A stretch of 64,000 bases of DNA. Origin: a virus. The notes under the pieces were generated by a model. The model was not told where the DNA came from. It saw only the letters and a program-made list of their open reading frames with translations, and ran no database searches. Where the stretch lies: positions 17,969 through 81,968 of IMG/VR virus record IMGVR_UViG_3300042876_000902; one strand, written 5' to 3'. The translations under genes and the position numbers were made by a program. Of the stretch, positions 12,689 through 57,074 are shown one piece after another; the first letter of the stretch is position 1; every line of letters starts with the position of its first letter.

Positions 12689-13219
12689 CTAGTAGTCGAC
12701 CTTCGCGTGGGGGTGATACTCCCACTCCCGCCCGGCCTTCTCAGCCCAGAGGCGGTTGAAGATCTCCATGTGCTCCGGGACGTACTCCTCCATGAACACG
12801 ATGCGGCGGCAGCTGGTGTTCATCAGGAGCTTCGTGCATGTCGAGCACGGGGCGAGCGTCACGTAGCAGGTGCTGATCGCCTGGGCGTCCCGGCACTGGA
12901 GGAGGGCGTTCTGCTCGGCGTGGATCGCCTCGCACCCGACCCCGCCCGACTGCGGCTGCCCGAGGGGCGCGAGGGCCCCGGAGCATGCGTTACCGTGGTA
13001 CACGGTAGTCTGCACTGCCCGGTGGGCCCCTTCGGCGTTGTCGACACTGGTGACCTCGTTGCAGTGAGGCAACCCGCTCGCGACCCCGTTGTACCCGGTC
13101 GCGAGGACGTGCCCGTGCCGGTCGACGAGGACGCACCCGACGTGGCGCCGGAGGCAGGTCGAGCGGGTCGCCACGAGCTTCGCCATCGCGACGAAGTACG
13201 TGTCCTTGTCGGGCCTCAC
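12689..13219 (-). CDS. dCMP deaminase
   Basis: RSTCLRRHVGCVLV..TGYNG..HAEQNA..PCSTC; GTGA overlap. Confidence 0.9.
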   Translation of the reverse strand: MRPDKDTYFVAMAKLVATRSTCLRRHVGCVLVDRHGHVLATGYNGVASGLPHCNEVTSVDNAEGAHRAVQTTVYHGNACSGALAPLGQPQSGGVGCEAIHAEQNALLQCRDAQAISTCYVTLAPCSTCTKLLMNTSCRRIVFMEEYVPEHMEIFNRLWAEKAGREWEYHPHAKVDY

Positions 13220-14067
13220 GGGAGCGGCCTCCACTGACAGGTCTCGTCGGCCGTCCCCTCGCGGAGCGCCATGAGGTCCCGGCGCAGGGTCTCCCAGTCG
13301 CCCTTCCGCACGAGGGCGTCGGGCGTTGGCTCCGGGACCGGCCCGGGGTCCGACTCGAGCACCTCCTTCACCTTGTCGATGTCCTTCAGGTAGAGGTGGC
13401 TCGACGTCGCGTTGATGGTCATGGTCCCGAGGCCGACCGTCAGCTCGCGAGGGAGACCCCAGTTGTGCATGCACGCGACGAAGAGGGCGACCGTCGCGAA
13501 GCTGAACATGTCGTAGGGAAGCCCCATCCATCCGTCGCTCGACCGCATGAAGACGTGTAGGTGGAGCAGGTCCCGCCGGATCGAGAAGCTCATCGCGACC
13601 GTGCAGGGGATGTCCTTGCTCGGCAGCGGGTTCCGCTCCCAGATGGTGAGCACCGCCTGGCGGGTGTCCCGGTCCTTGCTGAGCTGCTGGACAACGTACG
13701 GGGTCTGCGCCCGGACCTTCGGGCCGTAGGCGCCGTTGAGGGTCACCCCGTCGTCGCTGAACCGCCCGTAGCTCGGCGCGAAGCGGGCGAGGGAGGCGAG
13801 GTCATTCTGGCCGTTCACGATCCACAGCGCCTCGGCGGCCATGAACTGCGCCGAGAGCTTCCGGGCCGGGGAGGTCACCACCGCCCGGCTCAGGTCGACG
13901 GACACGAGCTGGCCGTGGAGCATCTCGACGGTGTCGATCCCGCGCGGGGAAACCTTCTGCCCCTCCCGGCAGATGGCCATCATGGCCTCCCGCCAGGCGG
14001 CATCGCCGCACGGGGCCGGGGTCCCGGGCTGCGGAGTGTATGACTGGGCGAGCATAACGTCGGTCAT
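13216..14067 (-). CDS. Thymidylate-synthase-fold enzyme, probably a dCMP hydroxymethylase/methylase
   Basis: DIPCT (catalytic Cys), MRSSDGWMGLPYD (Asp at the canonical Asn), SHLY. Confidence 0.8.
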   Translation of the reverse strand: MTDVMLAQSYTPQPGTPAPCGDAAWREAMMAICREGQKVSPRGIDTVEMLHGQLVSVDLSRAVVTSPARKLSAQFMAAEALWIVNGQNDLASLARFAPSYGRFSDDGVTLNGAYGPKVRAQTPYVVQQLSKDRDTRQAVLTIWERNPLPSKDIPCTVAMSFSIRRDLLHLHVFMRSSDGWMGLPYDMFSFATVALFVACMHNWGLPRELTVGLGTMTINATSSHLYLKDIDKVKEVLESDPGPVPEPTPDALVRKGDWETLRRDLMALREGTADETCQWRPLP

Positions 14068-14591
14068 GAGTCGAACCTCCCTTCGGCGATGTGGATGGCG
14101 AAGGCGGGCGCCCCGCCCTCCCACTGGGTGCGGTCGTACTTGAGGACGGGGAGCGAGGTCTTCATTGCGGCGTACCCGTCCCACACGCGGCGGAGCTGGT
14201 CCGTCCGCTTGAGGTACTCCTCCTGCGGCCTGCCCTCGAACGACTTGGCGCAGACCTCGAACGGCGGGAGGCAGAGGACCACCACGCCGTCGCACGCTGC
14301 TGCGATGCCCTCGAGCCACCCCGCCGTGTTCGGGCTCAGCCGGTTCAGCCCGGCCCGCATCACGGCGCCGTAGATGGGCTCGGAGAGCCACGACCGGTCG
14401 AGCACCGTGTCGACGTACCCGTGGGTTGCGGGCATCATGCTCACCTCGTACACGTCGGCGAGGTCTTGAGGGGAGACCTTGAGGTAGGAGCCATGGTGGA
14501 TGAGCATCCCTTGGACGGCGCGGGTGAGCGCCTGGGCCAGCGTGGTCTTGCCCGAGCCGTCCGGGCCTTCGAGGATGAAGAGGCGGCTCAT
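14064..14591 (-). CDS. P-loop deoxynucleoside monophosphate kinase
   Basis: ILEGPDGSGKTT..DRSWLSEPIYG. Confidence 0.8.
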   Translation of the reverse strand: MSRLFILEGPDGSGKTTLAQALTRAVQGMLIHHGSYLKVSPQDLADVYEVSMMPATHGYVDTVLDRSWLSEPIYGAVMRAGLNRLSPNTAGWLEGIAAACDGVVVLCLPPFEVCAKSFEGRPQEEYLKRTDQLRRVWDGYAAMKTSLPVLKYDRTQWEGGAPAFAIHIAEGRFDS

Positions 14592-15076
14592 GGCGTCGCC
14601 TCCTTCGGCGCTCCGGCGTCGTCGCGCCGGTTGACGTACGTGCTCCGGTCGAGCCCCTCGGCATGGAGGTGAACCAGGTGGCTCGGCGGCGACCACCCCG
14701 GCGGCTTGATGAGGTCGACCGCGTGCCCGCGGTGCCCGACGCCGCGGATCTTGGACATGTTCGCCCGGTCGACCTCGGCCCACGAGCGGCGCCAGACCCG
14801 GCGGAGGCCGAGCATCACGGCCGTGCCTTTGAGGAAGACGCCGATGTCGATGAGCGCGTCCGTCATCCCCGCGATGTCGTCGCTCTCGACCGCGTCCTCC
14901 AGCTCGTCCACCTCCTCGCGGAGGCACTGCAGCCGCTCGCGCATCTTCCGCTTCGTGAGGAAGCCCGGCTCCTCGAACGAGAGGATGCCGAACTTGAGGT
15001 GCATCGCGCGGACGTCTTCCAGCTCCGGGTCGAGCCCGCGCAGGACGCGGATCGCATTCCACAGTCTCTTGAACAT
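14588..15076 (-). CDS. MazG-like (PRA-PH/DR2231-type) dNTP pyrophosphatase
   Basis: EEVDEL..DALID..V..ANMSK..KPPGW.PP. Confidence 0.85.
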   Translation of the reverse strand: MFKRLWNAIRVLRGLDPELEDVRAMHLKFGILSFEEPGFLTKRKMRERLQCLREEVDELEDAVESDDIAGMTDALIDIGVFLKGTAVMLGLRRVWRRSWAEVDRANMSKIRGVGHRGHAVDLIKPPGWSPPSHLVHLHAEGLDRSTYVNRRDDAGAPKEATP

Positions 15077-15099: not shown

Positions 15100-15138
15100 A
15101 ACAACAAGGGCCCGCCGCGTGCATCCGCGGCAGGCCCG
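15100..15138 (-). terminator. Intrinsic terminator
   Basis: gggcctgccgcgg..cgcggcgggccc followed by ttgttgttt on the minus strand. Confidence 0.55.
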
Positions 15139-15156: not shown

Positions 15157-16107
15157 TTAGGCCGCCTTCTTCTCGGGCGGCTTCAGCCCCTTCTTCTTGA
15201 GGTCGTTGCGGTACCACGCGACGTACGTGCGCTTGAAGCTCGGGAACTCCTTGCTGACCTTGTCGAAGATGACGTCGTCCGAGAACCGCCCGGACATGAT
15301 CAGCTCCTTCGCGACGCTCGCGGCCGACCGGCGCTCGCCCTTCTCCTTCGGCGCCTTGGCGGTGGCGCCCGCGCCCTTCTTCACGGACTTCATCGAGGCG
15401 GCGGCGTTGCCCTTGCCCGTCTTCTTCGCGGTGGTGATGCTCGGCTTCTTGGCCATGGCTCTCTCCTTTGCGCTGCTGTTGACGTTGATGAGCTTCTCCA
15501 GCTCTTCCACTGCGCGCTCGGTGGCTCCCCGGTACTGCATGTACTCGGTGAACAGCGTGGCGCACCTCGCCACCGGGTAACCCTCGATCTCCTTGTACTT
15601 CTTGTCGAACTCCCGCGCCGGGAGGGTCTTGACCGTGAACGGCCCCTCCCCCTCGGCGTCGAGCGTCAGGAACTCTACCACCTTCATGTCGTGCTCGCCA
15701 CCACCACTTTCAGGGAGGCGCCTCCCCAGCTCGATGCAGACCCGGTTGCTGAAGTCCTTGCAGACGACCGCCTGCTCCTGCGCCTTGAGCTGGCTCTTCG
15801 TGAACCGCTCGACCTCCCGGAACGTGGCGTTCACGGTTGGGCACGTGGAGAGGTGGTGCGTGATGGGCTGCTTGCACTCGCCGCACTTGGGCGCCTGGCC
15901 GTTGCCGAAGGCGGGCCCCTGCTTCTTGGCCTCGGGCGCCTTCGTGCTCTTGGTGGGCGGTGCCTTCGCGGGCGCGGCGGGCTTCTTCGTGCTCTTCACC
16001 TTCGCGGGCGGAGCCTTCTTCACCTTCGTGCTCTTGACCTCCTTCTTCGCGGCCTTCGCGGGCTTCTTGCTGCTCTTCGTGTCCTTCCTCGTCCCCTTCT
16101 TCGCCAT
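15157..16107 (-). CDS. Histone-H1-like Lys/Ala-rich protein with a C-terminal WYR HTH-like domain
   Basis: ATG 16107 after GAGGAGG; PAKK-like repeats, a CxxC..H..C knuckle, C-terminal ..YVAWYRNDLKKKG. Confidence 0.7.
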   Translation of the reverse strand: MAKKGTRKDTKSSKKPAKAAKKEVKSTKVKKAPPAKVKSTKKPAAPAKAPPTKSTKAPEAKKQGPAFGNGQAPKCGECKQPITHHLSTCPTVNATFREVERFTKSQLKAQEQAVVCKDFSNRVCIELGRRLPESGGGEHDMKVVEFLTLDAEGEGPFTVKTLPAREFDKKYKEIEGYPVARCATLFTEYMQYRGATERAVEELEKLINVNSSAKERAMAKKPSITTAKKTGKGNAAASMKSVKKGAGATAKAPKEKGERRSAASVAKELIMSGRFSDDVIFDKVSKEFPSFKRTYVAWYRNDLKKKGLKPPEKKAA

Positions 16108-16136
16108 GTGCATCCTCCTCAGCCAGAGGGTTGGAC

Positions 16137-16192
16137 CAATCAACTTCGGCGACCCTAGCAAGACCGGTTTGGGGAGTAAAGGGAGTTGATTG
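16137..16192 (-). promoter_or_regulatory. sigma70-like promoter bracketed by a 9-bp inverted repeat
   Basis: Minus strand TTTACT-17bp-TAGGGT with extended TG; CAATCAACT 16137-16145 / AGTTGATTG 16184-16192. Confidence 0.55.
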
Positions 16193-22788: not shown

Positions 22789-23196
22789 CTACGCCTTCAC
22801 GATGCTGATCTTCTTCTTGATGAACTTCGTGATGCCCGGGACCTTCTTCCCGGCTGCCCACATCTCCGCGATGGCCGTGGACGACAGCCGCTTCTGGATG
22901 AGGTGGAACGCGCCGGTCTTCCTCACGTACTTGTAGAAGGCCTCGTCGCCGCCGTCCTTCGCGAACACCGGGATGTCCTTCTTCACCAGCTTGGCCTTCC
23001 CCTTCTTCCCGGCGACGATCTCCGCCTCCATCCCCTCGAGCACTGAGATGAGGTGAAGCTCGAGTGCGTTCTCCTCCGCCTCGTACTTCGCCACCTCCTT
23101 CTGCAGCTTGGCCTTCTTCTCGCCCAGCTCCTTGAACCGGTCGACGCAGGCGCCGGGCGTCTTCGGGAACGTGAACTGCTTGACCTCGTCGCTCAC
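22789..23196 (-). CDS. Hypothetical replication-module protein
   Basis: GTGA overlap; FPKTPGACVD..GKKVPGI. Confidence 0.6.
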   Translation of the reverse strand: MSDEVKQFTFPKTPGACVDRFKELGEKKAKLQKEVAKYEAEENALELHLISVLEGMEAEIVAGKKGKAKLVKKDIPVFAKDGGDEAFYKYVRKTGAFHLIQKRLSSTAIAEMWAAGKKVPGITKFIKKKISIVKA

Positions 23197-23849
23197 GCGT
23201 TCACCTCGCGGTCGAAGACCTCCGGGCAGAGGTCGATCAGCTCCCGCCGCACCATCCCGGCGACCTCCCGCATCTGCGGGTGGGCTGCGGGCGCCGTCCG
23301 GAGCTTCAGGAAGTGGAGCCACTCCCGGAAGTTCATCTTGACGCAGATCTCCGTCTTGAGGCACGTCGGGAGAACCGACCGCGCGATCTGCGGCGCCGCC
23401 CCGTGGTCGACGAGGTTCAGGTACGCCGCCTCAGCGCGGAGCATCGCGTCCTCCCATTCCCGGCGCTGCCATTCGTCGAGCCCCGGAGGCATGATCACCG
23501 CGATCTCCCCGCCGCGCTTCTCACTCGCGTAGTTGCAGTAGCGAGTGCTCTCCTGGGCGTAGGAGGCGATCCGGTGGCGGACGATCTCGTGGGAGACGCC
23601 GCGGTCGCAGACGATGCGGAACGTCGCGTCACCGAACTCGAGCATCGCGTCGTGGTGCATGCCCGCGAGCTTCGTGATGAGCTTCGCCGCGGAGCCGGGG
23701 GAGATGAGCCCCTCCGACTTGTAGCAGGTCCGCGCCGCCGCCTCGATGGCGAGGGCGCCCTCGGAGGCCGACCGCATCAGCTCCTCGGGCGGTGTCTGGG
23801 CGAGGACCGACGCCGCGATGAGCGTCGCGCTCTGGCTGACGATCTTCAC
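23193..23849 (-). CDS. thyX: Flavin-dependent thymidylate synthase
   Basis: RGVSHEIVRHRIASYAQESTRY; ARSVLP; NFREW.HF..LR. Confidence 0.95.
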   Translation of the reverse strand: MKIVSQSATLIAASVLAQTPPEELMRSASEGALAIEAAARTCYKSEGLISPGSAAKLITKLAGMHHDAMLEFGDATFRIVCDRGVSHEIVRHRIASYAQESTRYCNYASEKRGGEIAVIMPPGLDEWQRREWEDAMLRAEAAYLNLVDHGAAPQIARSVLPTCLKTEICVKMNFREWLHFLKLRTAPAAHPQMREVAGMVRRELIDLCPEVFDREVNA

Positions 23850-24167: not shown

Positions 24168-24839
24168 TCACTCCCCTCTCGTCTGCTTGTGATGGTTGTA
24201 CCTCTCCATGATCGCTTCGTGCACCGCCTCGACCGGGCGGGTTCCGTCCACGACGATCCACGACTCGTCGCTCATCGCCTCGTCATGCCACAGCTGGTCG
24301 TACCCGTCGACCACTTGCTCGATGAAGCCGGGCTTCCCCTCGTAGCGGTCGGGGTTCCCGCGGGCCGCGAGGCGCTCGACGCACACGCTCGCCGGGACGT
24401 GGACGAGCACGTTGAGGTCGGCCTGCGGGAGCAGCTCATGCATCTGCTTCAGGTGCTCGAGGTTGAGCCCGTCGGCGCTGCCGTACACGAGGCCCGACTG
24501 GTAGTACCGGTCGCAGACCATCCCCGCGACGCGACCGAGCCCGAGGTGGGCCCGGCGGAGCTTCCGCCCGACCTCCATCCGGTTCGCGAGCATCATCGCT
24601 TGGAACATCAGGGCGTCGTCGAGCACATCCGCTTCGATGAACTCGACCGAAGCGGCGTGGTCGCCGACGTCGGCGTAGGCCCCCAGCTTCAGCTGGCCCT
24701 TCAGGTGCCGGTCGATGAGCTTCCCGATCGGAGTGCTCCGGTCCGGGAACCGCTGGAGGTCGAAGCCCAGCCGGTCCGCGAGCATCTTCGCCTGGGTGGA
24801 CTTGCCCGAGCCGTCCGGGCCTTCGATGGTGATGATCAT
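24168..24839 (-). CDS. tmk: Thymidylate kinase
   Basis: IEGPDGSGKSTQ, RFPDRSTPIG, ANRME, DRYYQSG. Confidence 0.9.
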   Translation of the reverse strand: MIITIEGPDGSGKSTQAKMLADRLGFDLQRFPDRSTPIGKLIDRHLKGQLKLGAYADVGDHAASVEFIEADVLDDALMFQAMMLANRMEVGRKLRRAHLGLGRVAGMVCDRYYQSGLVYGSADGLNLEHLKQMHELLPQADLNVLVHVPASVCVERLAARGNPDRYEGKPGFIEQVVDGYDQLWHDEAMSDESWIVVDGTRPVEAVHEAIMERYNHHKQTRGE

Positions 24840-25713: not shown

Positions 25714-26319
25714 TCAGCCCGCCTTCCGCATCAGCTTCTCCGTCACCTCCGACGTCGTGAGCGCCTTCGCCACCACCCCGCGGAGGACGCTCCCCCTCCC
25801 GAGCGCGGCGCGGAGGTCGCGCACGTTGCGCTTGCCGTACGCGGCGACCATGCTCGGGCCCCACGCGCCACCCGACGGCTCGCCGGTGGGCAGGCAGAAC
25901 TCGAAGCGCCCCCGCTGGAACAGCACCTCGTCCGCGGTTTCCATCAGCAGCTGGGCCCAGGCGGTGTCCATCGACTTCGCGGGGACTAGCATGAACCCGT
26001 CGCCGTGCTCGGCCAGGAGCTGCACCCACGGGAGGACCCGCGAGTAGGGCGGGTTCACCCACTTCCGCCCGCGCTTCCACAGGCTCGGGTCGAGCCCGTC
26101 GCCCAGCGTCACGCCGCCCGCCACCTTGAGCTTGCGCGGCTCGCCGTCGACGACCGTCACGCCGTTCGAGATCATCCGCTTCGCGGTACGCCACGGCATG
26201 CGCGGGTAGCAGCACGGGTCGAGGTCGAACGGCCCGAGGTCGTCGACCACGGGCTTGGGTGTGAGCCAGTCGTCGGTGGCCGACTTCGAGTCGGGCCGGT
26301 TCCGGTTGTCCTTGTTCAC
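25714..26319 (-). CDS. Phage DNA N6-adenine methyltransferase
   Basis: DDWLTP..PFDLDPC..WVNPPYS. Confidence 0.85.
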   Translation of the reverse strand: MNKDNRNRPDSKSATDDWLTPKPVVDDLGPFDLDPCCYPRMPWRTAKRMISNGVTVVDGEPRKLKVAGGVTLGDGLDPSLWKRGRKWVNPPYSRVLPWVQLLAEHGDGFMLVPAKSMDTAWAQLLMETADEVLFQRGRFEFCLPTGEPSGGAWGPSMVAAYGKRNVRDLRAALGRGSVLRGVVAKALTTSEVTEKLMRKAG

Positions 26320-43356: not shown

Positions 43357-44160
43357 CTACGCGCGGCGGAGCACCCACGCGCAGTTGCTCGATGCCTGCG
43401 GGTACTTCGGCGCGAGGAAGTTGGCGAGCACCTCCCACGGATACCAGGTCAGCAGCTCCTCCACGAGCTTGCGCTCGTCGGGCGTCATCACCTTCTTCAT
43501 CGCGTTCGCGGTCATGAAGGTGCCGTGGACGCGCTCGACCCGGAGCCCGACCGACTCGATGTAGTATCGCAGCTCGTCGAAGCGGTACTCGTGGATGTGG
43601 TTCGCCGCCATGTGCTTCTCGTTGTAGACGGGCGTCGAGAGGAGCGCCGTGCCGTCCGGCTTCAGCACGCCGCGGATCCCCTGAAGCAGCTTGATGCCGT
43701 CGGTGACCCCCATGTGCTCGATCGCCTCGAAGCAGGTGACGAGGTCGAACGGTCCCGGCGCCCGCGCTGCGCGCTCGGTCCCGTCAGAGAGGAGCGGTTT
43801 CATCAGCTCCTTCCACCGGCTCGTGAAGTCGAACTCGTCAAACACTCGAGTCCACGCGATGCCCGGCTTCTTCGGGATGCGGTCGACGTCGACCCCGACG
43901 TACAGCTCGGGGACCGTCGTCAGCGTGTGGAGCAGCACCTTCGGCATCATGACGTCCGGGCCACAGCCGACGTCGAGGACCCGCATCCCCTGCCGGACGA
44001 AGCGGACCGCGTAACTCCACCGGAACCAGTGGGCGGCGTAGTCCCGGTGGACGTACTTCCCGTGCACCCCGCCCTCGCGGAGCGAGGTGGAGTCGAAGCG
44101 CCGCGCCTCACGCTTCGTCGACGGGTGAGGCTTCGGCGCTGGCCAGCTCTTCTTGCTCAT
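43357..44160 (-). CDS. Class I SAM-dependent methyltransferase
   Basis: H..RW..A..VLDVGCG..FDLVTCFEAIEH..LKPDG..LSTP. Confidence 0.85.
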   Translation of the reverse strand: MSKKSWPAPKPHPSTKREARRFDSTSLREGGVHGKYVHRDYAAHWFRWSYAVRFVRQGMRVLDVGCGPDVMMPKVLLHTLTTVPELYVGVDVDRIPKKPGIAWTRVFDEFDFTSRWKELMKPLLSDGTERAARAPGPFDLVTCFEAIEHMGVTDGIKLLQGIRGVLKPDGTALLSTPVYNEKHMAANHIHEYRFDELRYYIESVGLRVERVHGTFMTANAMKKVMTPDERKLVEELLTWYPWEVLANFLAPKYPQASSNCAWVLRRA

Positions 44161-44750
44161 CGGATCTCTCCCCACTGCTTGGCCATCGCCTTGGCGATGC
44201 CAGGGTACGTGCGGCTCCTCTGCTTCCACCGGTCCGGCGAGGGCGACGCCCACGACCCCGGGCAGGTGGACACCCCTGCGTAGTACGGCCTCTGGAAGCT
44301 CACCTCGACCACCCGGCTCGGCTTCAGGTGCGGGAGGTTCACGAGCCAGAGGCACGTCTTCTTCGTCTCGCCGTGCCCGTGCTGCCACGGCTGGATGACC
44401 TGGTCGGGTGGCCTCACCGCCTTGGAGAGGATGCCGACCGGGTTCTCGAGTGCGATGCGCGGCACCGGGGCGGCGAGCAGCTCCTCCACGAAGGCGATGG
44501 CCTCCTGCTGCTCGCCGCTCCGGCGCTTCGCCGCCCACCACCGCGCCCCGGACGCGGCGAGGTGGGTGCACGGAGGGAACGCGACCATCAGGTCCCACCG
44601 CCCGCGCTTCAGCTGCCGCCGGACGTCCCCGATGATGTGAGGCCCCGGCGCCTCGCTCGGGAGGAGGTCGCAGGAGACGGCCTCGTGCCCGCGGGCGATG
44701 AACGCGTCGCGGACGCGACCGGAGAATTCGCAGGCCACGAGGACGCGCAT
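44157..44750 (-). CDS. Compact phage C5-cytosine methyltransferase-like protein
   Basis: VLVACEFSG, FPPCT, ENPVG, RSRTYPGIA.AMA.QWG. Confidence 0.75.
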   Translation of the reverse strand: MRVLVACEFSGRVRDAFIARGHEAVSCDLLPSEAPGPHIIGDVRRQLKRGRWDLMVAFPPCTHLAASGARWWAAKRRSGEQQEAIAFVEELLAAPVPRIALENPVGILSKAVRPPDQVIQPWQHGHGETKKTCLWLVNLPHLKPSRVVEVSFQRPYYAGVSTCPGSWASPSPDRWKQRSRTYPGIAKAMAKQWGEIR

Positions 44751-45950
44751 CTAGGCCGCCGCGCCCACGTCGACGAGCATCGAGCGCGACGTCGGGCAGA
44801 GGTTGAGGACGTCCCCGTGGCTCACCTTGTGGGTGGCCTTGCGGACCTGGCCGGTGACGTTGCTCGAGAGCGTCTCGCAGACCCAGCGGGCGACCGCGGG
44901 GACCACGCCCTTCGAGAGGTACATCCGGAACTGCCCGTGGGTCGAGCCCGGCCACGCGTAGTCGTCGGGGAAGCCCATGATGCGGTTGTACTCCTCGCGG
45001 ACGAGCGGCCGGTCCGTCCCGCCGATGCTCCACCAGGCCCCGGCGAGGACCGTCGGTGCCATCCCCTCGGGGTCCATGATGCGCAGGACGTTGGTCACGT
45101 ACGGCGCCCGCTCGCAGAGGGCGCGGACGACGGCCGCGGGCGTGCCCTTCTCGAGCTTGATGCCGGTCTTCGACACCCCGCCGCCGATGCTGTCGAGCTT
45201 GCCGGTCCGCTTCAGCTCCTTGTTGATGATGGCGAGCATCGTCCCGTAGCCCTGCTCCCCGAGCATCGCGGCGTCGGCGAACTTCTTGCCGAACTGCGCC
45301 TTGAGCTTCGCCCGCTGACGCTCGAACGCCTCGACGTCGCGCTCGATCGGCGTGCCGCCCTTCTTCATCAGGATGCTGCCGACCGTCGCGAGCTGCGGAC
45401 GGTGGACGACGTGCAGCTCGCGGTTCGGGAGGACGCCCTTGCGGACGAACAGCGCCCAGAAGCGCTGGCGCCACTGCGGGTTGCCGAAGGTGACCGCGTT
45501 CTGCTGGATGCGGAAGAGGTCGTACCCGCGCGCCGCGAACTTGTCGTGGACCGAGCGTGCGCCCTCCAACGCCCCGGGGACCGACTCGACCGCGATGGCG
45601 AGTGCCTTGTTCCCCATCGCGTAGTTGAGCACGTTGATGGTGCAGGCGAAGGCGTCGGAGTCGAGGCCGACCTTGGTCTTGCCGTCGGCCGACTTCTGCC
45701 ACCGCGGCGTCATCAGCGAGAACGCTGAGCACGGCGGATGCGCCATGACGATGCTGTCGCTGAGGTCCAGCTTCTTCGGCCACTGGTCCCTGGTGTCGTG
45801 GTACGTGAGCTTCGGGAAGTTGGCCTTCTGGATGTTGATCCCGAAGGCACTGTCTTCCATCGAGGCGACGATCTCGTGCTTCGCCTGGGTGACGCCCTGC
45901 ACGATGCTGCCCGCGTAACTGTTGATGATGAGAACGCTCGGCTTGCCCAT
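44751..45950 (-). CDS. C5-cytosine DNA methyltransferase with divergent motifs
   Basis: SYAGS (I), HPPCSAFS (IV), ESV (VI), QWRQR (VIII), RE..R.MGFPDDY (IX), KGVVP (X). Confidence 0.8.
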   Translation of the reverse strand: MGKPSVLIINSYAGSIVQGVTQAKHEIVASMEDSAFGINIQKANFPKLTYHDTRDQWPKKLDLSDSIVMAHPPCSAFSLMTPRWQKSADGKTKVGLDSDAFACTINVLNYAMGNKALAIAVESVPGALEGARSVHDKFAARGYDLFRIQQNAVTFGNPQWRQRFWALFVRKGVLPNRELHVVHRPQLATVGSILMKKGGTPIERDVEAFERQRAKLKAQFGKKFADAAMLGEQGYGTMLAIINKELKRTGKLDSIGGGVSKTGIKLEKGTPAAVVRALCERAPYVTNVLRIMDPEGMAPTVLAGAWWSIGGTDRPLVREEYNRIMGFPDDYAWPGSTHGQFRMYLSKGVVPAVARWVCETLSSNVTGQVRKATHKVSHGDVLNLCPTSRSMLVDVGAAA

Positions 45951-52128: not shown

Positions 52129-54330
52129 TCAGAACTTCTTGGCACGCTTCTTCGGCGGCTCCTCCGGGGCGAACCCCTCCTTCCGCAGCTCATCCTCCAC
52201 GTGCTTCTGCACCCCGTCCCGCCCGGCGGCGTTCCACTTCTGGGCGTTCTTCACCCGGATGACGTAGCCCTTCCACGTCCGGCCGAAGACCTTGAGCGGC
52301 ACGGCGCTCGCCCGCGGGAACCTCATCTGCTGGAGGAGGACGCCCATCGCGTTCACCGTCACCGGCTCCTTCTTGCGAACGCGGTCGAAGAACGTGACGA
52401 CCTCCGACGAGGTGTAGATGTCCCTGGTCAGCGCGCCGTTCGCGCCCCAGAGCACGGAGTCGGGGTCCTCGCGGAGCGCGGCGAGGAACTGCGCGGCCTC
52501 GCTGCGGGTCGCGCCGATCATCTCCTCCTTGCTCTCGGTCATCGGGGCCCAGCCCGTCGGCTCGAAGGCGTCCAGGTTCACCTCGTGCCGGAAGTGCCAG
52601 AGCAGGTGGCTCGGCCCGCCGCCCGCGAGCCACTCGTAGTACCTCCGCCAGAACGGTCCGCACTCCCGGCAGCGGTCGACCTCTGCCTGCGTCATGTGGA
52701 AGTCGCGGCCGCAGATGGCCTTGAGGATCTGGTGGATGGCGAAGCGGCGGTCGCCCTCGTCGACGCGGAGGACGTTGGGGCGGTTGGACGTCTCGTAGAA
52801 GTTGGCGTGGTCAGGGAGCGGATACTGCGGGACGTGCTTGACGTTGCACTGCAGGAACTCCTCCGTGATGAGCTTCTTCAGGATGTCGACCTTCCGCTGG
52901 GCATCGGACCCGGTCATGTCATCGATCATCACGAACTGCTTGCCGATGGCCCACCAGTTGAAGTCCGATTCGAGGTCGTTCTGGTTGATCTCGCTGTAGT
53001 TGTTCCCGTAGATGAGCCCGAGGGTCTTCCCGATCACCGACTTCCCGACGCCCTGCCCGTGCGACCAGATGCAGAGCGAGGTGTTCAGCTTCCCGGCCTC
53101 CGGGTGGGCGATGGGCCAGGCAAACCACTTCTCTCCCCACCTCCGCATCTCGGGCGACCCGTCGAAGACCCGGTCGAGGAGGTCCGTCCACGGGCCCACG
53201 TCGCCCTTCTCCTCCTCGACGCCCCAGCCGCCCCACGTGTTGTAGCAGTCGCCGACGATCCTCGGCTGCCCCGGCGCGTAGGTCGCGAAGGAGTGCTCGC
53301 GGCGCATCGGCCAGTCCGCCCACTCGAACGCCACCTTGACGTCCTGCAGCTTCGGCCGCCCGTCCTCCTCCACGCTGACGATCTTCTTCGCCCACACGTT
53401 CGAGTAGTGGACGTTCTTGAAGTCGGAGAGGGCCATCTGCGGCGTGTTCCTCCACCGCTTCTGGGTCGGGTCGTGCAGCTCCTCGACCGCCCGCTCGTCG
53501 ATGACGAAGCCGGGGTGCTTGATCATCACGAAGCGCGAGTTGAACTCCCACAGCTTCCGGGCGAGGTCGTCGGGCACGGCGTCGTCGAGCAGCCGCTGGA
53601 ACTCCTCGTCACCCTCGGCCACGAGGAAGTCGTCGAGCCCCGTCTTCTCCACGTCGGGGAGGTCGGGGAGGTTCACGACGGCGGTGGTCGCGCCCTCCTG
53701 CGTGATGGTGTTCGTGAAGCGTACCATCGCCCGCATGACGGCGGGCTTCCGGGCGGCGTCGGCGTCGAAGACCAGGTACACCTGACGCCCGAGCCACTTC
53801 ATCTCCTTCAGCTCGGGGAGGAGCGCCCAGCCCCGCTTGCTGCTCGAGAAGCTGTCCACTCCGGGGAGGGCGAAGCAAGCGTGCCCGCGCTTGGCGGCGC
53901 AGGCACTCTTCAGCTCACCCTCTGTCACGACGATGGGGACGCTCGTGTCCTTCGCCACCTTCTCCCAGTTCACGAGGCGCGGGAAGTAGGCCGCGGGCGG
54001 GCACCCGACCGGCCGGATGTACCGCTTCTGCCCGTCCTTGCTCAGGTCGGCGAACCCCTCCACCGGGTACTCGCCCAGGAGCCGCACGCAGCAGACCCCG
54101 CGGCGCGGCTCGCCCGCGAGGTTGTGGTACTGGATCTTCAGGCCCGGCATGTCGGGCACGCCCTTGTTCTTCGCGAGGACCAGCTTCACCTCCTTGATCG
54201 TCAGCACCTCGATGCCGAGGAGCTTCGCGTCCTTCGTGTCGAGGCCCGAGCTTGCCAGCTTCGCAGCCGCGAGCGCGCCGGGCGTTCCCTTCCCCTCCCG
54301 CTGCTTCGCCACCTTGCCCTCCTCGCTCAT
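52129..54330 (-). CDS. Primase (TOPRIM, DUF3854-like)-SF3 helicase (DUF5906-like)
   Basis: VTEGELK, FDAD, KTGLDDFL; GQGVGKS; TSN..DRRF. Confidence 0.9.
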   Translation of the reverse strand: MSEEGKVAKQREGKGTPGALAAAKLASSGLDTKDAKLLGIEVLTIKEVKLVLAKNKGVPDMPGLKIQYHNLAGEPRRGVCCVRLLGEYPVEGFADLSKDGQKRYIRPVGCPPAAYFPRLVNWEKVAKDTSVPIVVTEGELKSACAAKRGHACFALPGVDSFSSSKRGWALLPELKEMKWLGRQVYLVFDADAARKPAVMRAMVRFTNTITQEGATTAVVNLPDLPDVEKTGLDDFLVAEGDEEFQRLLDDAVPDDLARKLWEFNSRFVMIKHPGFVIDERAVEELHDPTQKRWRNTPQMALSDFKNVHYSNVWAKKIVSVEEDGRPKLQDVKVAFEWADWPMRREHSFATYAPGQPRIVGDCYNTWGGWGVEEEKGDVGPWTDLLDRVFDGSPEMRRWGEKWFAWPIAHPEAGKLNTSLCIWSHGQGVGKSVIGKTLGLIYGNNYSEINQNDLESDFNWWAIGKQFVMIDDMTGSDAQRKVDILKKLITEEFLQCNVKHVPQYPLPDHANFYETSNRPNVLRVDEGDRRFAIHQILKAICGRDFHMTQAEVDRCRECGPFWRRYYEWLAGGGPSHLLWHFRHEVNLDAFEPTGWAPMTESKEEMIGATRSEAAQFLAALREDPDSVLWGANGALTRDIYTSSEVVTFFDRVRKKEPVTVNAMGVLLQQMRFPRASAVPLKVFGRTWKGYVIRVKNAQKWNAAGRDGVQKHVEDELRKEGFAPEEPPKKRAKKF

Positions 54331-55040
54331 CTCCGCTCCCCGACCTGCCGCCCGTCCACGATGACCCGCTCGATGCGCTCCTTCAGCCTCTTCTCGACCT
54401 GTCTCACCCGCTCGCGGGACACGCCGTGATCCTTCCCGATCTCCGCCAGCGACAGTGGCGCGTCGCTCAGGAGCCGCCGCGCCACGATGTCAAGCTCGAG
54501 CGCGCTGTGCGCCGAGATGTTCGACGCCCACACCACCTCGCCGCGCCGCTCCAGCGCCTCGGCCGCCTCCAGCGGCGACGGGCCGCCGTCCTCGATGATC
54601 TCGAAGCGCGACAGCTCGACCCCGTCCTCGGTCACCGTGTTCGGGACCAGCGACAGGTTGGCCAGCTTCATCCGGTCGACCGACCCGCCGAAGGGGAGCC
54701 GGTGCCGCGTCACCGCCATCGCGACGTAGGCCCGGATCCAGTTCTGCGCGTACGACGCGAACCGCACACCGCGCCCCGCGTCGAAGCGGTCCGCCGCGAC
54801 GCACAGACCAAGCACGCCCTCGTGGGCGAGGTCCGCCACCCGGATGCCCGGCGTCCTCGCGTACGGCTTGAGGACGAAGATGACGAGGCGCAGGTTGTGC
54901 TCGATGAGGAGCTTCCGCGCCCATCGGTCCCCGGCCGCCACCCGGCGGGCCAGCTCGACCTCCTCCTCTTTGCTCAGCACGTGCCTCGACGCCGCCATCT
55001 TGGCGAAGCGCTTGAAGCTCGGGTCGTCCCAGACGTTCAT
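54327..55040 (-). CDS. sigma70-family (RpoH/RpoD-like) sigma factor
   Basis: LSKEEE..L, HNLRLV, DL.HEG..GL..A..RFD..RG.RF.SYA..WIR, GVSRERVRQVE. Confidence 0.9.
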   Translation of the reverse strand: MNVWDDPSFKRFAKMAASRHVLSKEEEVELARRVAAGDRWARKLLIEHNLRLVIFVLKPYARTPGIRVADLAHEGVLGLCVAADRFDAGRGVRFASYAQNWIRAYVAMAVTRHRLPFGGSVDRMKLANLSLVPNTVTEDGVELSRFEIIEDGGPSPLEAAEALERRGEVVWASNISAHSALELDIVARRLLSDAPLSLAEIGKDHGVSRERVRQVEKRLKERIERVIVDGRQVGERR

Positions 55041-55264
55041 CCCGCCCTCCCCTTCGTCCACAGCGGCGGGTCCAACGGCCGCCTCGGCTCCGCCCTCTTC
55101 GCTCCCATGTCGATGAAGACCCGGAGGTCGCAACTGCACCGGGGGCAGCGGGCGTGCCCCGCGACCCCCGGCTTGGGCCGGACCGTCATCACCTCGCCCT
55201 TGCAGCGGAAGCAGAGGACGACGCACGGCTCGCCCTCCACCTCCCTGACCCGCCCCCTCGCCAC
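55037..55264 (-). CDS. Small zinc-ribbon protein
   Basis: CFRC..CPRC. Confidence 0.5.
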   Translation of the reverse strand: MARGRVREVEGEPCVVLCFRCKGEVMTVRPKPGVAGHARCPRCSCDLRVFIDMGAKRAEPRRPLDPPLWTKGRAG

Positions 55265-55870: not shown

Positions 55871-56076
55871 TTCGCCGCCTTCCTTTCTTTGACCAGCTGC
55901 TGAACCTCTCCCCTCACCTTCTCGACCACCGCCTCGACGCAGGTCTGACAAGTGTCCCCGAGCGGGAGCCACAGCTCATCCTGCCCGGAGTCGTCGCAGT
56001 AGACTCTGACGGTGTACTGCTCCATGTGCTCCTTCTCCGCGCCGCAGACGTCGCAGACCGTGATCGTCTTCTTCAT
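55867..56076 (-). CDS. Small Cys-rich hypothetical protein
   Basis: CDVCG..CQTC; coupled overlaps. Confidence 0.5.
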   Translation of the reverse strand: MKKTITVCDVCGAEKEHMEQYTVRVYCDDSGQDELWLPLGDTCQTCVEAVVEKVRGEVQQLVKERKAAK

Positions 56077-57074
56077 GACTTCAACCATTCTGGGTGATCG
56101 AGGGACCACTTCACCACACGCTCGAGGCTCTGCTCGAAGGAGACGGGCGGCGCCCACCCCAGTGCCGCGAGCTTCGAGCCGTCGAGCGCGTACCGCAGGT
56201 CATGGCCGGGGCGCTGCGAGTGGAAGTCTGTCATCACGTGGCGCAGCGGCTTGCCCACGAACCCGGCGATGAGCTGGGCGAGCCGCAGGTTGTCGCACTC
56301 CTCCTCCCCGACGATGTTGAACTTGTCCCCGACCCTTCCGTGCTGGAGGATGAACATGACGGCGTGAGCGACGTTCCGGGCGTGGATGTAGAAGCGGCTC
56401 CCCGCCTTGGTCAGGTCCGCGTTCGCGTGGACGACGACGAGCTGCCCGTCGCGGACCCGGCGGATGGTCCCGGGGACGAACTTCTCCGGGTGCTGCCGCT
56501 CGCCGATGACGTTCATGCAGTGGGTGATGAGCACCGGCAGCCCGTACGTGTTGTGGTACGCGAGGCACAGCTCCTCGGCCCCCGCCTTCGTGGCGCTGTA
56601 CGGGTTGCCCGAGCGGTAGCGGTCCCACTCCTTGTAGGCGACGCCCTCGGGCGCCGGGCCGAACACCTCGTCCGTGGAGAAGTAGACGAAGCGCACCGGA
56701 TCGTGCCACCGTGCGTACTCGAGCAGGTTGGCCGTCGCGACTACGTTGTCGTACACGAACGAGAGCGGGTCGCTGATGGAGCGGTCGACGTGGGTCGCCG
56801 CCGCCAGGTGGAAGACGTAGTCCACCGGCCCGATCTGCTGAGCGAGCTGGGGCGAGACCGGTGCCTTGAGGTCGTGCCACACCCAGCGGCAGCGGTGACG
56901 GTGTCCGTCCCAGCCTGCGATCTCGGCGATGCGGTTGAGGTTCCCCGAGAGGTCGAGCCGGTCGAGGAAGACGATGCTCCAGTCCGTGTTGCGGAGCACG
57001 TGCTCCGCGACGTGATGCCCGATGAACCCCGCCCCGCCCGTGAGCAGGACGACCTTGCTGCCTCTCTTCTTCAT
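56073..57074 (-). CDS. rmlB: dTDP-glucose 4,6-dehydratase-like NDP-sugar dehydratase
   Basis: TGGAGFIG, HLAA.THVDRSI, STDEVFG, YSATK, RPGHDLRYA. Confidence 0.9.
   Translation of the reverse strand: MKKRGSKVVLLTGGAGFIGHHVAEHVLRNTDWSIVFLDRLDLSGNLNRIAEIAGWDGHRHRCRWVWHDLKAPVSPQLAQQIGPVDYVFHLAAATHVDRSISDPLSFVYDNVVATANLLEYARWHDPVRFVYFSTDEVFGPAPEGVAYKEWDRYRSGNPYSATKAGAEELCLAYHNTYGLPVLITHCMNVIGERQHPEKFVPGTIRRVRDGQLVVVHANADLTKAGSRFYIHARNVAHAVMFILQHGRVGDKFNIVGEEECDNLRLAQLIAGFVGKPLRHVMTDFHSQRPGHDLRYALDGSKLAALGWAPPVSFEQSLERVVKWSLDHPEWLKS

Follow-up and report, generated by a model that had tools for sequence, protein, structure and literature searches.

Bacteriophage T4 shields its DNA against bacterial restriction enzymes with 5-hydroxymethylcytosine (5hmC). 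The T4 gene set comprises the deoxycytidine triphosphatase (dCTPase) gp56, the deoxycytidine monophosphate (dCMP) hydroxymethylase gp42, the deoxynucleoside monophosphate (dNMP) kinase gp1, the dCMP deaminase Cd and Td/Frd. In metagenomic data, Thymidylat_synt, PRA-PH and dCMP deaminase domains co-occur, in many cases exclusively on contigs that carry modified cytosine (MetaGPA, PMC8670742). For deaminase genes at most 3 kb away from a thymidylate synthase (TS) gene, values of 70% on modified versus 6% on canonical contigs have been reported (bioRxiv 2024.12.05.627091). The core strategy, i.e. a pyrophosphatase, a ThyA homologue with the N177D exchange (E. coli numbering), a kinase and a deaminase, is already known from textbook T4 and the MetaGPA studies. 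Here, we analyzed 64,000 nucleotides of viral DNA (hereafter the window), which represent bases 17969-81968 of the 81,968-bp IMG/VR virus record IMGVR_UViG_3300042876_000902. Judged from their sequences, four coupled genes at 12689-15076 of the window probably form a T4-like, pre-replicative pathway for the synthesis of 5-hydroxymethyl-dCTP (5hm-dCTP).

The source record was rated 100% complete by CheckV, and the GC content of the window is approximately 67%. The uncultured soil virus is a siphovirus with a GC-rich genome of 82 kb, recovered from rhizosphere metagenomes, and a distant relative of Stenotrophomonas phage AXL3; the cassette sequence recurs in 4 rhizosphere metagenome runs. Structural, tail and lysis genes are located on the plus strand, while the minus-strand arm from 12689 on carries genes for replication and nucleotide metabolism. 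The cassette consists of four minus-strand open reading frames (ORFs) coupled by 4-bp overlaps (ATGA, ATGA, GTGA) and is preceded by a hairpin:

14588-15076, minus strand: MazG-like (PRA-PH) all-alpha nucleoside triphosphate (NTP) pyrophosphatase, ATG start with AAAGGAG upstream (PF01503, phrog_671)
14064-14591, minus strand: short dNMP kinase of the thymidylate kinase (TMPK) fold, 175 aa, ATG overlapping the MazG stop as ATGA (phrog_761)
13216-14067, minus strand: ThyA-fold enzyme, predicted dCMP hydroxymethylase, ATGA overlap with the kinase stop (PF00303)
12689-13219, minus strand: dCMP deaminase, GTG start, GTGA overlap with the stop of the ThyA-fold gene, GGAGG upstream (PF00383)
15108-15137, minus strand: terminator-like hairpin with a 12-pair stem including 11 G-C pairs, followed by the T-rich tail TTGTTGTTTC, directly upstream of the MazG ribosome-binding site

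The ORF reading and the family matches confirm the four coupled genes that a preliminary description of this DNA had named. A Shine-Dalgarno sequence is present before all four ORFs, and the GTG start of the deaminase matches the annotated N-terminus of AXL3 gp27 in the alignment. The hairpin delimits the four-gene unit on the 5' side, and at the 3' end the lysis module converges on the cassette. A sigma-70-like promoter was not found in the vicinity, which says little, since the phage has a sigma-70-family factor of its own (54327-55061, minus strand).

The ThyA-fold enzyme matches PF00303 at 4.2e-21 (75.7 bits versus a cut-off of 24.3 bits), and its best score with an NCBIfam TS model is 54.4 bits versus a cut-off of 327 bits, with TS cut-offs spanning 108-427 bits. 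Among proteins of solved structure, the CMP 5-hydroxymethylase MilA is the best match (8e-21), while true TS proteins follow at 3e-12 or weaker. The diagnostic positions, given here in E. coli numbering as named in PMC13326640 and PMC5175136, read D143/C146/T147/S167/D169/D177/R126. For comparison we aligned reference enzymes with products described in the literature and sequences taken from annotated phage records; only Donnerlittchen is represented by an uncharacterised homologue. Products are those of thymidine monophosphate (dTMP), deoxyuridine monophosphate (dUMP) or cytidine nucleotides carrying 5-hydroxymethyl (5hm), 5-hydroxy (5ho) or 5-methyl (5m) groups; 5mC denotes 5-methylcytosine:

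E. coli ThyA, dTMP: L143, H147, D169, N177
SPO1 gp29, 5hm-dUMP: D143, N147, D169, N177
T4 gp42, 5hm-dCMP: D143, T147, D169, D177
MilA, 5hm-CMP: D143, T147, D169, D177
RB69 gp48, 5ho-dCMP: E143, T147, N169, D177
Xp12 (5m-dCMP), PaMx74 (5mC DNA) and Donnerlittchen (uncharacterised homologue), 5m-dCMP type: N143, P147, D169, D177
ThyA-fold enzyme of the cassette, predicted 5hm-dCMP: D143, T147, D169, D177

The motifs quoted initially are present in the alignments with E. coli ThyA and T4 gp42: GLPYD stands against GLPFN of E. coli, and KDIPCT against SDFMCT of T4 gp42. The Asp at the dUMP/dCMP specificity site, on which the preliminary description had relied, is likewise present as Asp177. Among the 120 nearest homologues from a search of 5.8 billion proteins, D143, C146, D169 and D177 occur in every sequence and T147 in 118; the closest metagenomic ones (P0003, P0004) are 68-74% identical. 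R21, R126 and R166, which bind the dNMP phosphate, as well as Y94, E58 and Cys146 are kept in the cassette enzyme and are invariant or nearly so in these homologues. N177D has been tied to the use of dCMP, an acidic residue 143 to a hydroxymethyl instead of a methyl product, and D169N to 5-hydroxylation; the acidic residue 143 goes along with hydration instead of reduction of the methylene intermediate (PMC13326640). In MilA, Ala and Lys favour CMP, while Ser and Arg at the same sites favour dCMP (PMC5175136); with Ser167 (RSSD) and Arg126 the cassette enzyme has the dCMP-preferring state.

The C-terminus points in the same direction. Xp12, PaMx74 and Donnerlittchen carry a TS-like tail, YNP(K/R)PEV, which is missing from the cassette enzyme. 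In ThyA, hydride transfer requires that the C-terminus shuts the active site, hence, the loss of this tail would fit a non-reductive chemistry. Phylogeny had been proposed as a check. By maximum likelihood, Xp12 is placed beside E. coli ThyA (99/92) and T4 gp42 beside RB69 gp48. The cassette enzyme falls into a separate clade, apart from both groups, which takes in SPO1 gp29. The reference branches are very long, and therefore the tree is used as supporting evidence only. Among the three products initially considered, 5hm-, 5m- and 5ho-dCMP, the first is favoured by these residues; the retained D169 speaks against the 5-hydroxy product, and the lack of N143/P147, of the TS-like tail and of dihydrofolate reductase (DHFR) against the methyl product.

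The genome provides dTMP by another route, as had been described before and is confirmed by the matches to PF02511, PF02223 and TIGR00041. The two genes are located 8-10 kb from the cassette:

23193-23849, minus strand: flavin-dependent thymidylate synthase ThyX (PF02511, 5.7e-49), RHR motif in the translation
24168-24839, minus strand: canonical dTMP kinase Tmk, the second TMPK paralogue (PF02223, 1.8e-12; TIGR00041, 2.2e-12), ATG start located

The ThyX route to dTMP yields no dihydrofolate (DHF). A match to DHFR (PF00186) was not found in the whole genome, i.e. the 64000-base window plus the preceding 17968 bases. DHFR is encoded beside the synthase in the three Xp12-type modules examined (Xp12, PaMx74, Donnerlittchen) and has been reported for all eight phages of the genus Pamexvirus (AXL1 paper). 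The presence of DHFR beside 5mC synthases fits the oxidation of tetrahydrofolate (THF) to DHF by their reaction, while a hydroxymethylase releasing THF would fit the use of ThyX and the absence of DHFR here.

The other three cassette proteins are consistent with such a pathway. The kinase is, on the modelled structure of a relative, a TMPK-fold dNMP kinase. It matches phrog_761 ("thymidylate kinase") at 3.6e-14, and its score with Pfam Thymidylate_kin (PF02223) is 19.5 bits, below the 27-bit cut-off. Its P-loop EGPDGSGKTT and the DRSWLSEPIYG motif are invariant across 30 relatives. The fold was assessed on the relative L064, to which the cassette kinase is 45% identical; TMP kinases are the top Foldseek matches of its AlphaFold model (pLDDT 91.5), with VIA-align Z scores of 13-14.6. 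By analogy with T4, RB69 and DLP3, where the kinase is dedicated to modified dCMP (PMC13326640), it is natural to read the second TMPK-like kinase in the same way, and its role on 5hm-dCMP is suggested by its position in the cassette and by the separate canonical Tmk in the genome. The dedication of synthase and kinase to dCMP modification, already proposed in the preliminary description, is hence supported by Asp177, by the kinase family and by ThyX plus Tmk elsewhere.

Most relatives (L064:6964-7911 and about 45 other loci, e.g. L079, L021 and L030) possess a kinase fusion of approximately 315 aa with a TMP kinase fold in the N-terminal part. Its extra C-terminal part of about 150 residues models as a family-4/5 uracil-DNA glycosylase (UDG) fold with conserved GE...PF...G and HPQ motifs; it matches the UDG of T. 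maritima (1L9G, Z 10.5, 23% identity), UdgX (6AIL, Z 10.1) and 2D3Y (Z 9.8). This domain is absent from the cassette kinase, and tblastn of the whole genome found no copy. Action as a DNA kinase, comparable to the 5-hydroxymethyl-dU DNA kinase of thymidine-hypermodifying phages, is less likely for the short form because it has TMPK-type motifs and no DNA-binding domain, and because 5hm-dCMP must get phosphorylated; for the long UDG-fused kinases of the relatives it may apply.

The MazG-like protein matches PF01503 (1.3e-7, 32.4 bits versus a cut-off of 21.3 bits) and phrog_671 "nucleotide pyrophosphohydrolase" (6e-20), shows the acidic motif EEVDELED...D..IDI in its translation, and has 32% identity with the Xp12 pyrophosphatase encoded in the 5mC module. 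The deaminase matches PF00383 (5.4e-19) and phrog_174 (7.7e-39) and contains the zinc motifs HAEQNA (HAE) and PCSTC (PCxxC). Its best matches in the PDB are the dCMP deaminases of S. mutans, cyanophage S-TIM5 and T4 (2HVV, 4P9C, 1VQ2).

In the pathway that we propose, the MazG-like pyrophosphatase would hydrolyse dCTP to dCMP, thereby draining the canonical pool and feeding the synthase. Active-site residues and relatives predict that the ThyA-fold enzyme would then join the methylene group of 5,10-CH2-THF to C5 of dCMP through Cys146, with Asp177 selecting cytosine and Ser167 together with Arg126 selecting deoxyribose. The exocyclic methylene would be hydrated and not reduced, giving 5hm-dCMP and THF. 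The TMPK-fold kinase would phosphorylate 5hm-dCMP, and the NDP kinase of the host would convert the product into 5hm-dCTP for the phage PolA. In its simplest role, the deaminase would convert a share of the dCMP into dUMP, from which ThyX and Tmk would provide dTTP without dihydrofolate formation.

The module is not restricted to this phage. A scan of IMG/VR gave 80 related loci, in which neighbours were counted by ORF clustering. The synthase is accompanied by the dCMP deaminase in 74 of the 80 loci, by MazG in 69, by the kinase in 54 and by a class I S-adenosylmethionine (SAM) methyltransferase of about 271 aa in 51, and a homologue of the Lys-rich ORF 15157-16161 is found near it in 48. Hence, the cassette represents a widespread conserved module. 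Some loci contain extra genes, namely a C5-cytosine methyltransferase within the module in 13 loci and a pyridoxal phosphate (PLP)-dependent (PALP) enzyme in 10 loci (L080:5434-6543, L024:6072-6998 and similar are examples for these two extras); the latter hints at further chemistry specific to certain lineages. Among named phages and contigs, AXL3, PW916 and a Manatee Spring contig ("pyrimidine hmase") carry the same module, with the four cassette proteins being 40-52% identical. The replication genes PolA (49% identity), SNF2 helicase (48%) and primase (34%) are also common with the relatives. The DNA of AXL3 resisted 35 of 37 restriction enzymes, and only enzymes with A/T-only sites cut it (PMC7504290); the PW916 paper contains no DNA-modification data. 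In the phage analyzed here, the Lys-rich 334-aa protein (15157-16161, minus strand) has no family match; in the 48 loci counted above and in AXL3, where the homologue is gp32, its C-terminal part of approximately 200 residues has counterparts upstream of the module. The replication arm further encodes a DUF3854/DUF5906 primase-helicase (52129-54330, minus strand).

Several points weigh against a T4-like 5hm-dCTP pathway. The similarity of the MazG-like protein to T4 gp56 is not significant (BLASTP, E 0.096). The ThyA-fold enzyme and T4 gp42 share no more than about 20% of their residues and fall into different groups of the tree; the former would thus be an analogue in function from another ThyA subfamily and no gp42 orthologue. 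The link of position 143 to the product is a correlation based on a small number of characterised enzymes, and five of seven tested N177D enzymes linked to deaminases made 5m-dCMP (bioRxiv 2024.12.05.627091). Moreover, the genome encodes three DNA methyltransferase candidates, listed below after the class I SAM methyltransferase; the first three entries form an island on the minus strand (43357-45950):

43357-44175, minus strand: virus-specific class I SAM methyltransferase (PF13489, 5.9e-14)
44157-44750, minus strand: "DNA methyltransferase" family protein (phrog_757, 5.6e-66; no Pfam match)
44751-45950, minus strand: divergent C5-cytosine DNA methyltransferase (PF00145, 3.5e-17) with HPPCSAFS catalytic motif, ESV motif and degenerate SAM motif I
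25714-26319, minus strand: Dam-like N6-adenine DNA methyltransferase (PF05869, 4.4e-10)

Finally, certain palindromes are strongly and selectively avoided in the whole genome relative to the expectation of a maximal-order Markov model:

GAGCTC: 1 seen, 58 expected
GCCGGC: 13 seen, 74 expected
CAGCTG: 28 seen, 66 expected
CCCGGG: 53 seen, 89 expected
AAGCTT: 2 seen, 20 expected
TTCGAA: 1 seen, 17 expected
AGTACT: 0 seen, 11 expected
CATG: 240 seen, 381 expected
GATC: 401 seen, 528 expected

The z score is at or below -3 for 8 of the 41 testable six-mers, compared with at most one each in AXL3, RB69 and the sampled parts of Xp12 and T4. The sites AGCT, TCGA and ACGT are enriched in the genome. 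Since the 5hmC-containing T4gt DNA resists NaeI (GCCGGC) and ScaI (AGTACT), the avoidance of these sites suggests that the phage DNA is now or was recently exposed to restriction. Together with the three DNA methyltransferase candidates, the avoidance argues that 5hmC is no complete shield here. It is possible to read the avoidance as partial substitution, as a recently acquired cassette or as a host-derived oligonucleotide bias. Hence, the cytosine substitution may be partial. Partial substitution had been deduced before from several co-occurring C5 methyltransferases. This basis does not hold, because there is a single PF00145 match (44751-45950) in the 82-kb genome; the idea itself finds independent, though indirect, support in the palindrome avoidance and in the presence of the C5, phrog_757 and Dam-like candidates.

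Among the alternatives, the one that survives best accepts 5hm-dCMP as an intermediate only and assumes that the final base is further derivatised, via the SAM methyltransferase (e.g. to an O-methylated hydroxymethyl group) or via an unrecognised enzyme. We regard this as rather unlikely, yet it has a concrete candidate. The methyltransferase gene is situated directly upstream of MazG in the 51 related loci mentioned above as well as in AXL3, PW916 and MW202621, and its orthologue was kept here at 43357-44175. This protein is 38% identical to AXL3 gp31, to the PW916 protein and to the MW202621 "capping protein", all adjoining MazG there, and its atlas neighbours are almost all viral. Its model (pLDDT 88.6) resembles small-molecule or nucleotide methyltransferases and not the DNA methyltransferase type, but the fold search returned generic class I methyltransferases only (cap guanine-N7, small-molecule; TM score about 0.5). 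The gain of a PLP-dependent enzyme in some modules would agree with further chemistry, as would the resistance of AXL3 DNA to all 35 enzymes with G/C-containing sites (PMC7504290), versus 82% for T4gt DNA with plain 5hmC. On the other hand, the methyltransferase gene is 29 kb away from the cassette; it lies beside two DNA methyltransferase candidates and may therefore be just another nucleic-acid methyltransferase. Our literature search turned up no mention of 5-methoxymethyl bases. The SAM methyltransferase may be an extra step of the pathway.

Extending this thought, it is conceivable, though we would rate it as doubtful, that AXL3, PW916 and several dozen metagenomic siphoviruses make an undescribed cytosine derivative, with the SAM methyltransferase processing 5hm-dC nucleotides or 5hmC DNA further. 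In most relatives the kinase-UDG fusion could join in, possibly on DNA. The phage analyzed here would then have dispersed the methyltransferase and lost the UDG domain, would rely on site avoidance and DNA methyltransferases, and would maybe belong to a lineage with partial or fading substitution.

Other decorating enzymes were looked for as well. The absence of a TET/JBP gene, already noticed in the preliminary description, is confirmed, since the genome gave no Tet_JBP match; neither a carbamoyltransferase gene nor a T4-type glucosyltransferase was recognised in it. Many mid-size ORFs of the replication arm have no match in Pfam, PHROGs or NCBIfam, hence, a DNA-decorating enzyme may go unrecognised there. 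Two glycosyltransferase (GT) fusions and an RmlB-like protein had been named as possible decorators, and these genes do exist:

1160-4551, plus strand: two GT fusions in the tail module, immediately preceding the distal-tail (DUF2460) genes, one with GT2 and an unknown domain (452 aa), the other with GT17-like, Methyltransf_24 and GT2 domains (673 aa)
56073-57074, minus strand: RmlB-like dTDP-glucose 4,6-dehydratase (TIGR01181, 1.2e-76, under the equivalog cut-off), at a large distance from the GT fusions

Given the position of the GT fusions in the tail module, glycosylation of the virion is likelier than decoration of DNA, for them as well as for the RmlB-like dehydratase.

Less probable still, and in our view improbable, is a pathway of the Xp12 type, in which dCMP would be reductively methylated to 5m-dCMP, 5mC would replace cytosine and the deaminase could act on 5m-dC nucleotides. 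Asp177 is common to both synthases, a pyrophosphatase of the same family and a deaminase flank the synthases of Xp12 and PaMx74, and the five of seven tested enzymes cited above gave precisely this product (bioRxiv 2024.12.05.627091). The cassette enzyme, however, has D143/T147 and not N143/P147, has no TS-like tail and is separated from Xp12, which groups with ThyA, in the tree. The genome has no DHFR, versus its presence in all three Xp12-type modules examined, and with ThyX and Tmk there is no need for a route to dTTP via 5mC deamination. The deaminase is also much closer to classical dCMP deaminases (1.5e-16), T4 Cd among them, than to the PBCV-1 protein 7FH4 (9e-5), which is the nearest solved structural match to a 5mC-selective deaminase (bioRxiv 2024.12.05.627091).

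An ordinary thymidylate supply, in which deaminase, thymidylate synthase and thymidylate kinase would provide dTTP from dCMP, corresponds to the annotation of "thymidylate synthase" and "thymidylate kinase" in the GenBank records of AXL3 and PW916 and to the interpretation in the AXL3 paper (PMC7504290), but it is highly improbable given that the TS residues Asn177, Leu143 and His147 are all replaced, that the score of 54 bits is below all NCBIfam TS cut-offs (108-427), that a full ThyX and Tmk route is already encoded, and that AXL3 DNA withstands restriction (PMC7504290). A 5-hydroxy-dCMP synthase of the RB69 gp48 or DLP3 gp80 type is disfavoured, because the characterised enzymes of this kind carry Asn169 (PMC13326640), as does RB69 gp48, whereas Asp169 is kept in the cassette enzyme and in all 120 homologues.

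The preferred reading, a T4-like 5hm-dCTP pathway, has consequences beyond this phage. The rule set of positions 143, 147, 167, 169 and 177 plus the DHFR context separates 5hm-, 5m- and 5ho-dCMP synthases and would place a large uncharacterised clade of siphoviruses in the 5hm class. It would also explain the restriction resistance of AXL3, a therapeutic candidate whose gene cluster has been annotated as ordinary thymidylate synthesis. Moreover, it draws attention to two unstudied partners of the module, the viral SAM methyltransferase and the kinase-UDG fusion. Finally, the combination of a modification cassette with strong site avoidance in one genome represents a test case for the completeness and protectiveness of cytosine substitution.

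In comparison with known systems, the predicted pathway shares with T4 an NTP pyrophosphatase, a synthase with D143/C146/T147/D169/D177, a dedicated kinase, a dCMP deaminase and a separate thymidylate synthase. The genes are scattered in T4, whereas they form one coupled cassette here; the synthase belongs to another clade than gp42, with about 20% identity, and the pyrophosphatase is of the PRA-PH/MazG type without significant similarity to gp56. The kinase is TMPK-like, dTMP would come from ThyX so that DHFR is not needed, and no T4-type glucosyltransferase was recognised in the genome. MilA from Streptomyces rimofaciens (PDB 5B6D, 5JNH) has Asp143, Thr147, Asp169 and Asp177 as in the phage enzyme; it differs by Ala176 and Lys133' (CMP) versus Ser and Arg (dCMP) of the phage enzyme, and it serves antibiotic synthesis, not DNA. 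The dUMP hydroxymethylase gp29 of Bacillus phage SPO1 is approximately 30% identical, falls within the same clade and has Asp143 and the Arg126-Gln127 pair in common; in contrast, it carries Asn177 (uracil) and Asn147, and its product is 5hm-dUMP. The modules of Xanthomonas phage Xp12 and Pseudomonas phage PaMx74 (pyrophosphatase, TS homologue, deaminase, DHFR) resemble the cassette in gene order, in the homologous pyrophosphatase (32% identity), in the Asp177 synthase and in the deaminase. They differ by the N143/P147 synthase with its TS-like tail and by DHFR in the module, and the three Xp12-type module regions examined contain neither a kinase nor thyX. In AXL3, palindromes are hardly avoided and a C5 methyltransferase match is missing, whereas this phage shows strong avoidance and one such match. 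In AXL3 and PW916 the kinase is extended by a C-terminal UDG-fold domain and the gene of the SAM methyltransferase lies inside the module, whereas here the kinase is short and the methyltransferase dispersed. AXL3 has the same module and, in common with this phage, ThyX, PolA, the SNF2 helicase and the primase.

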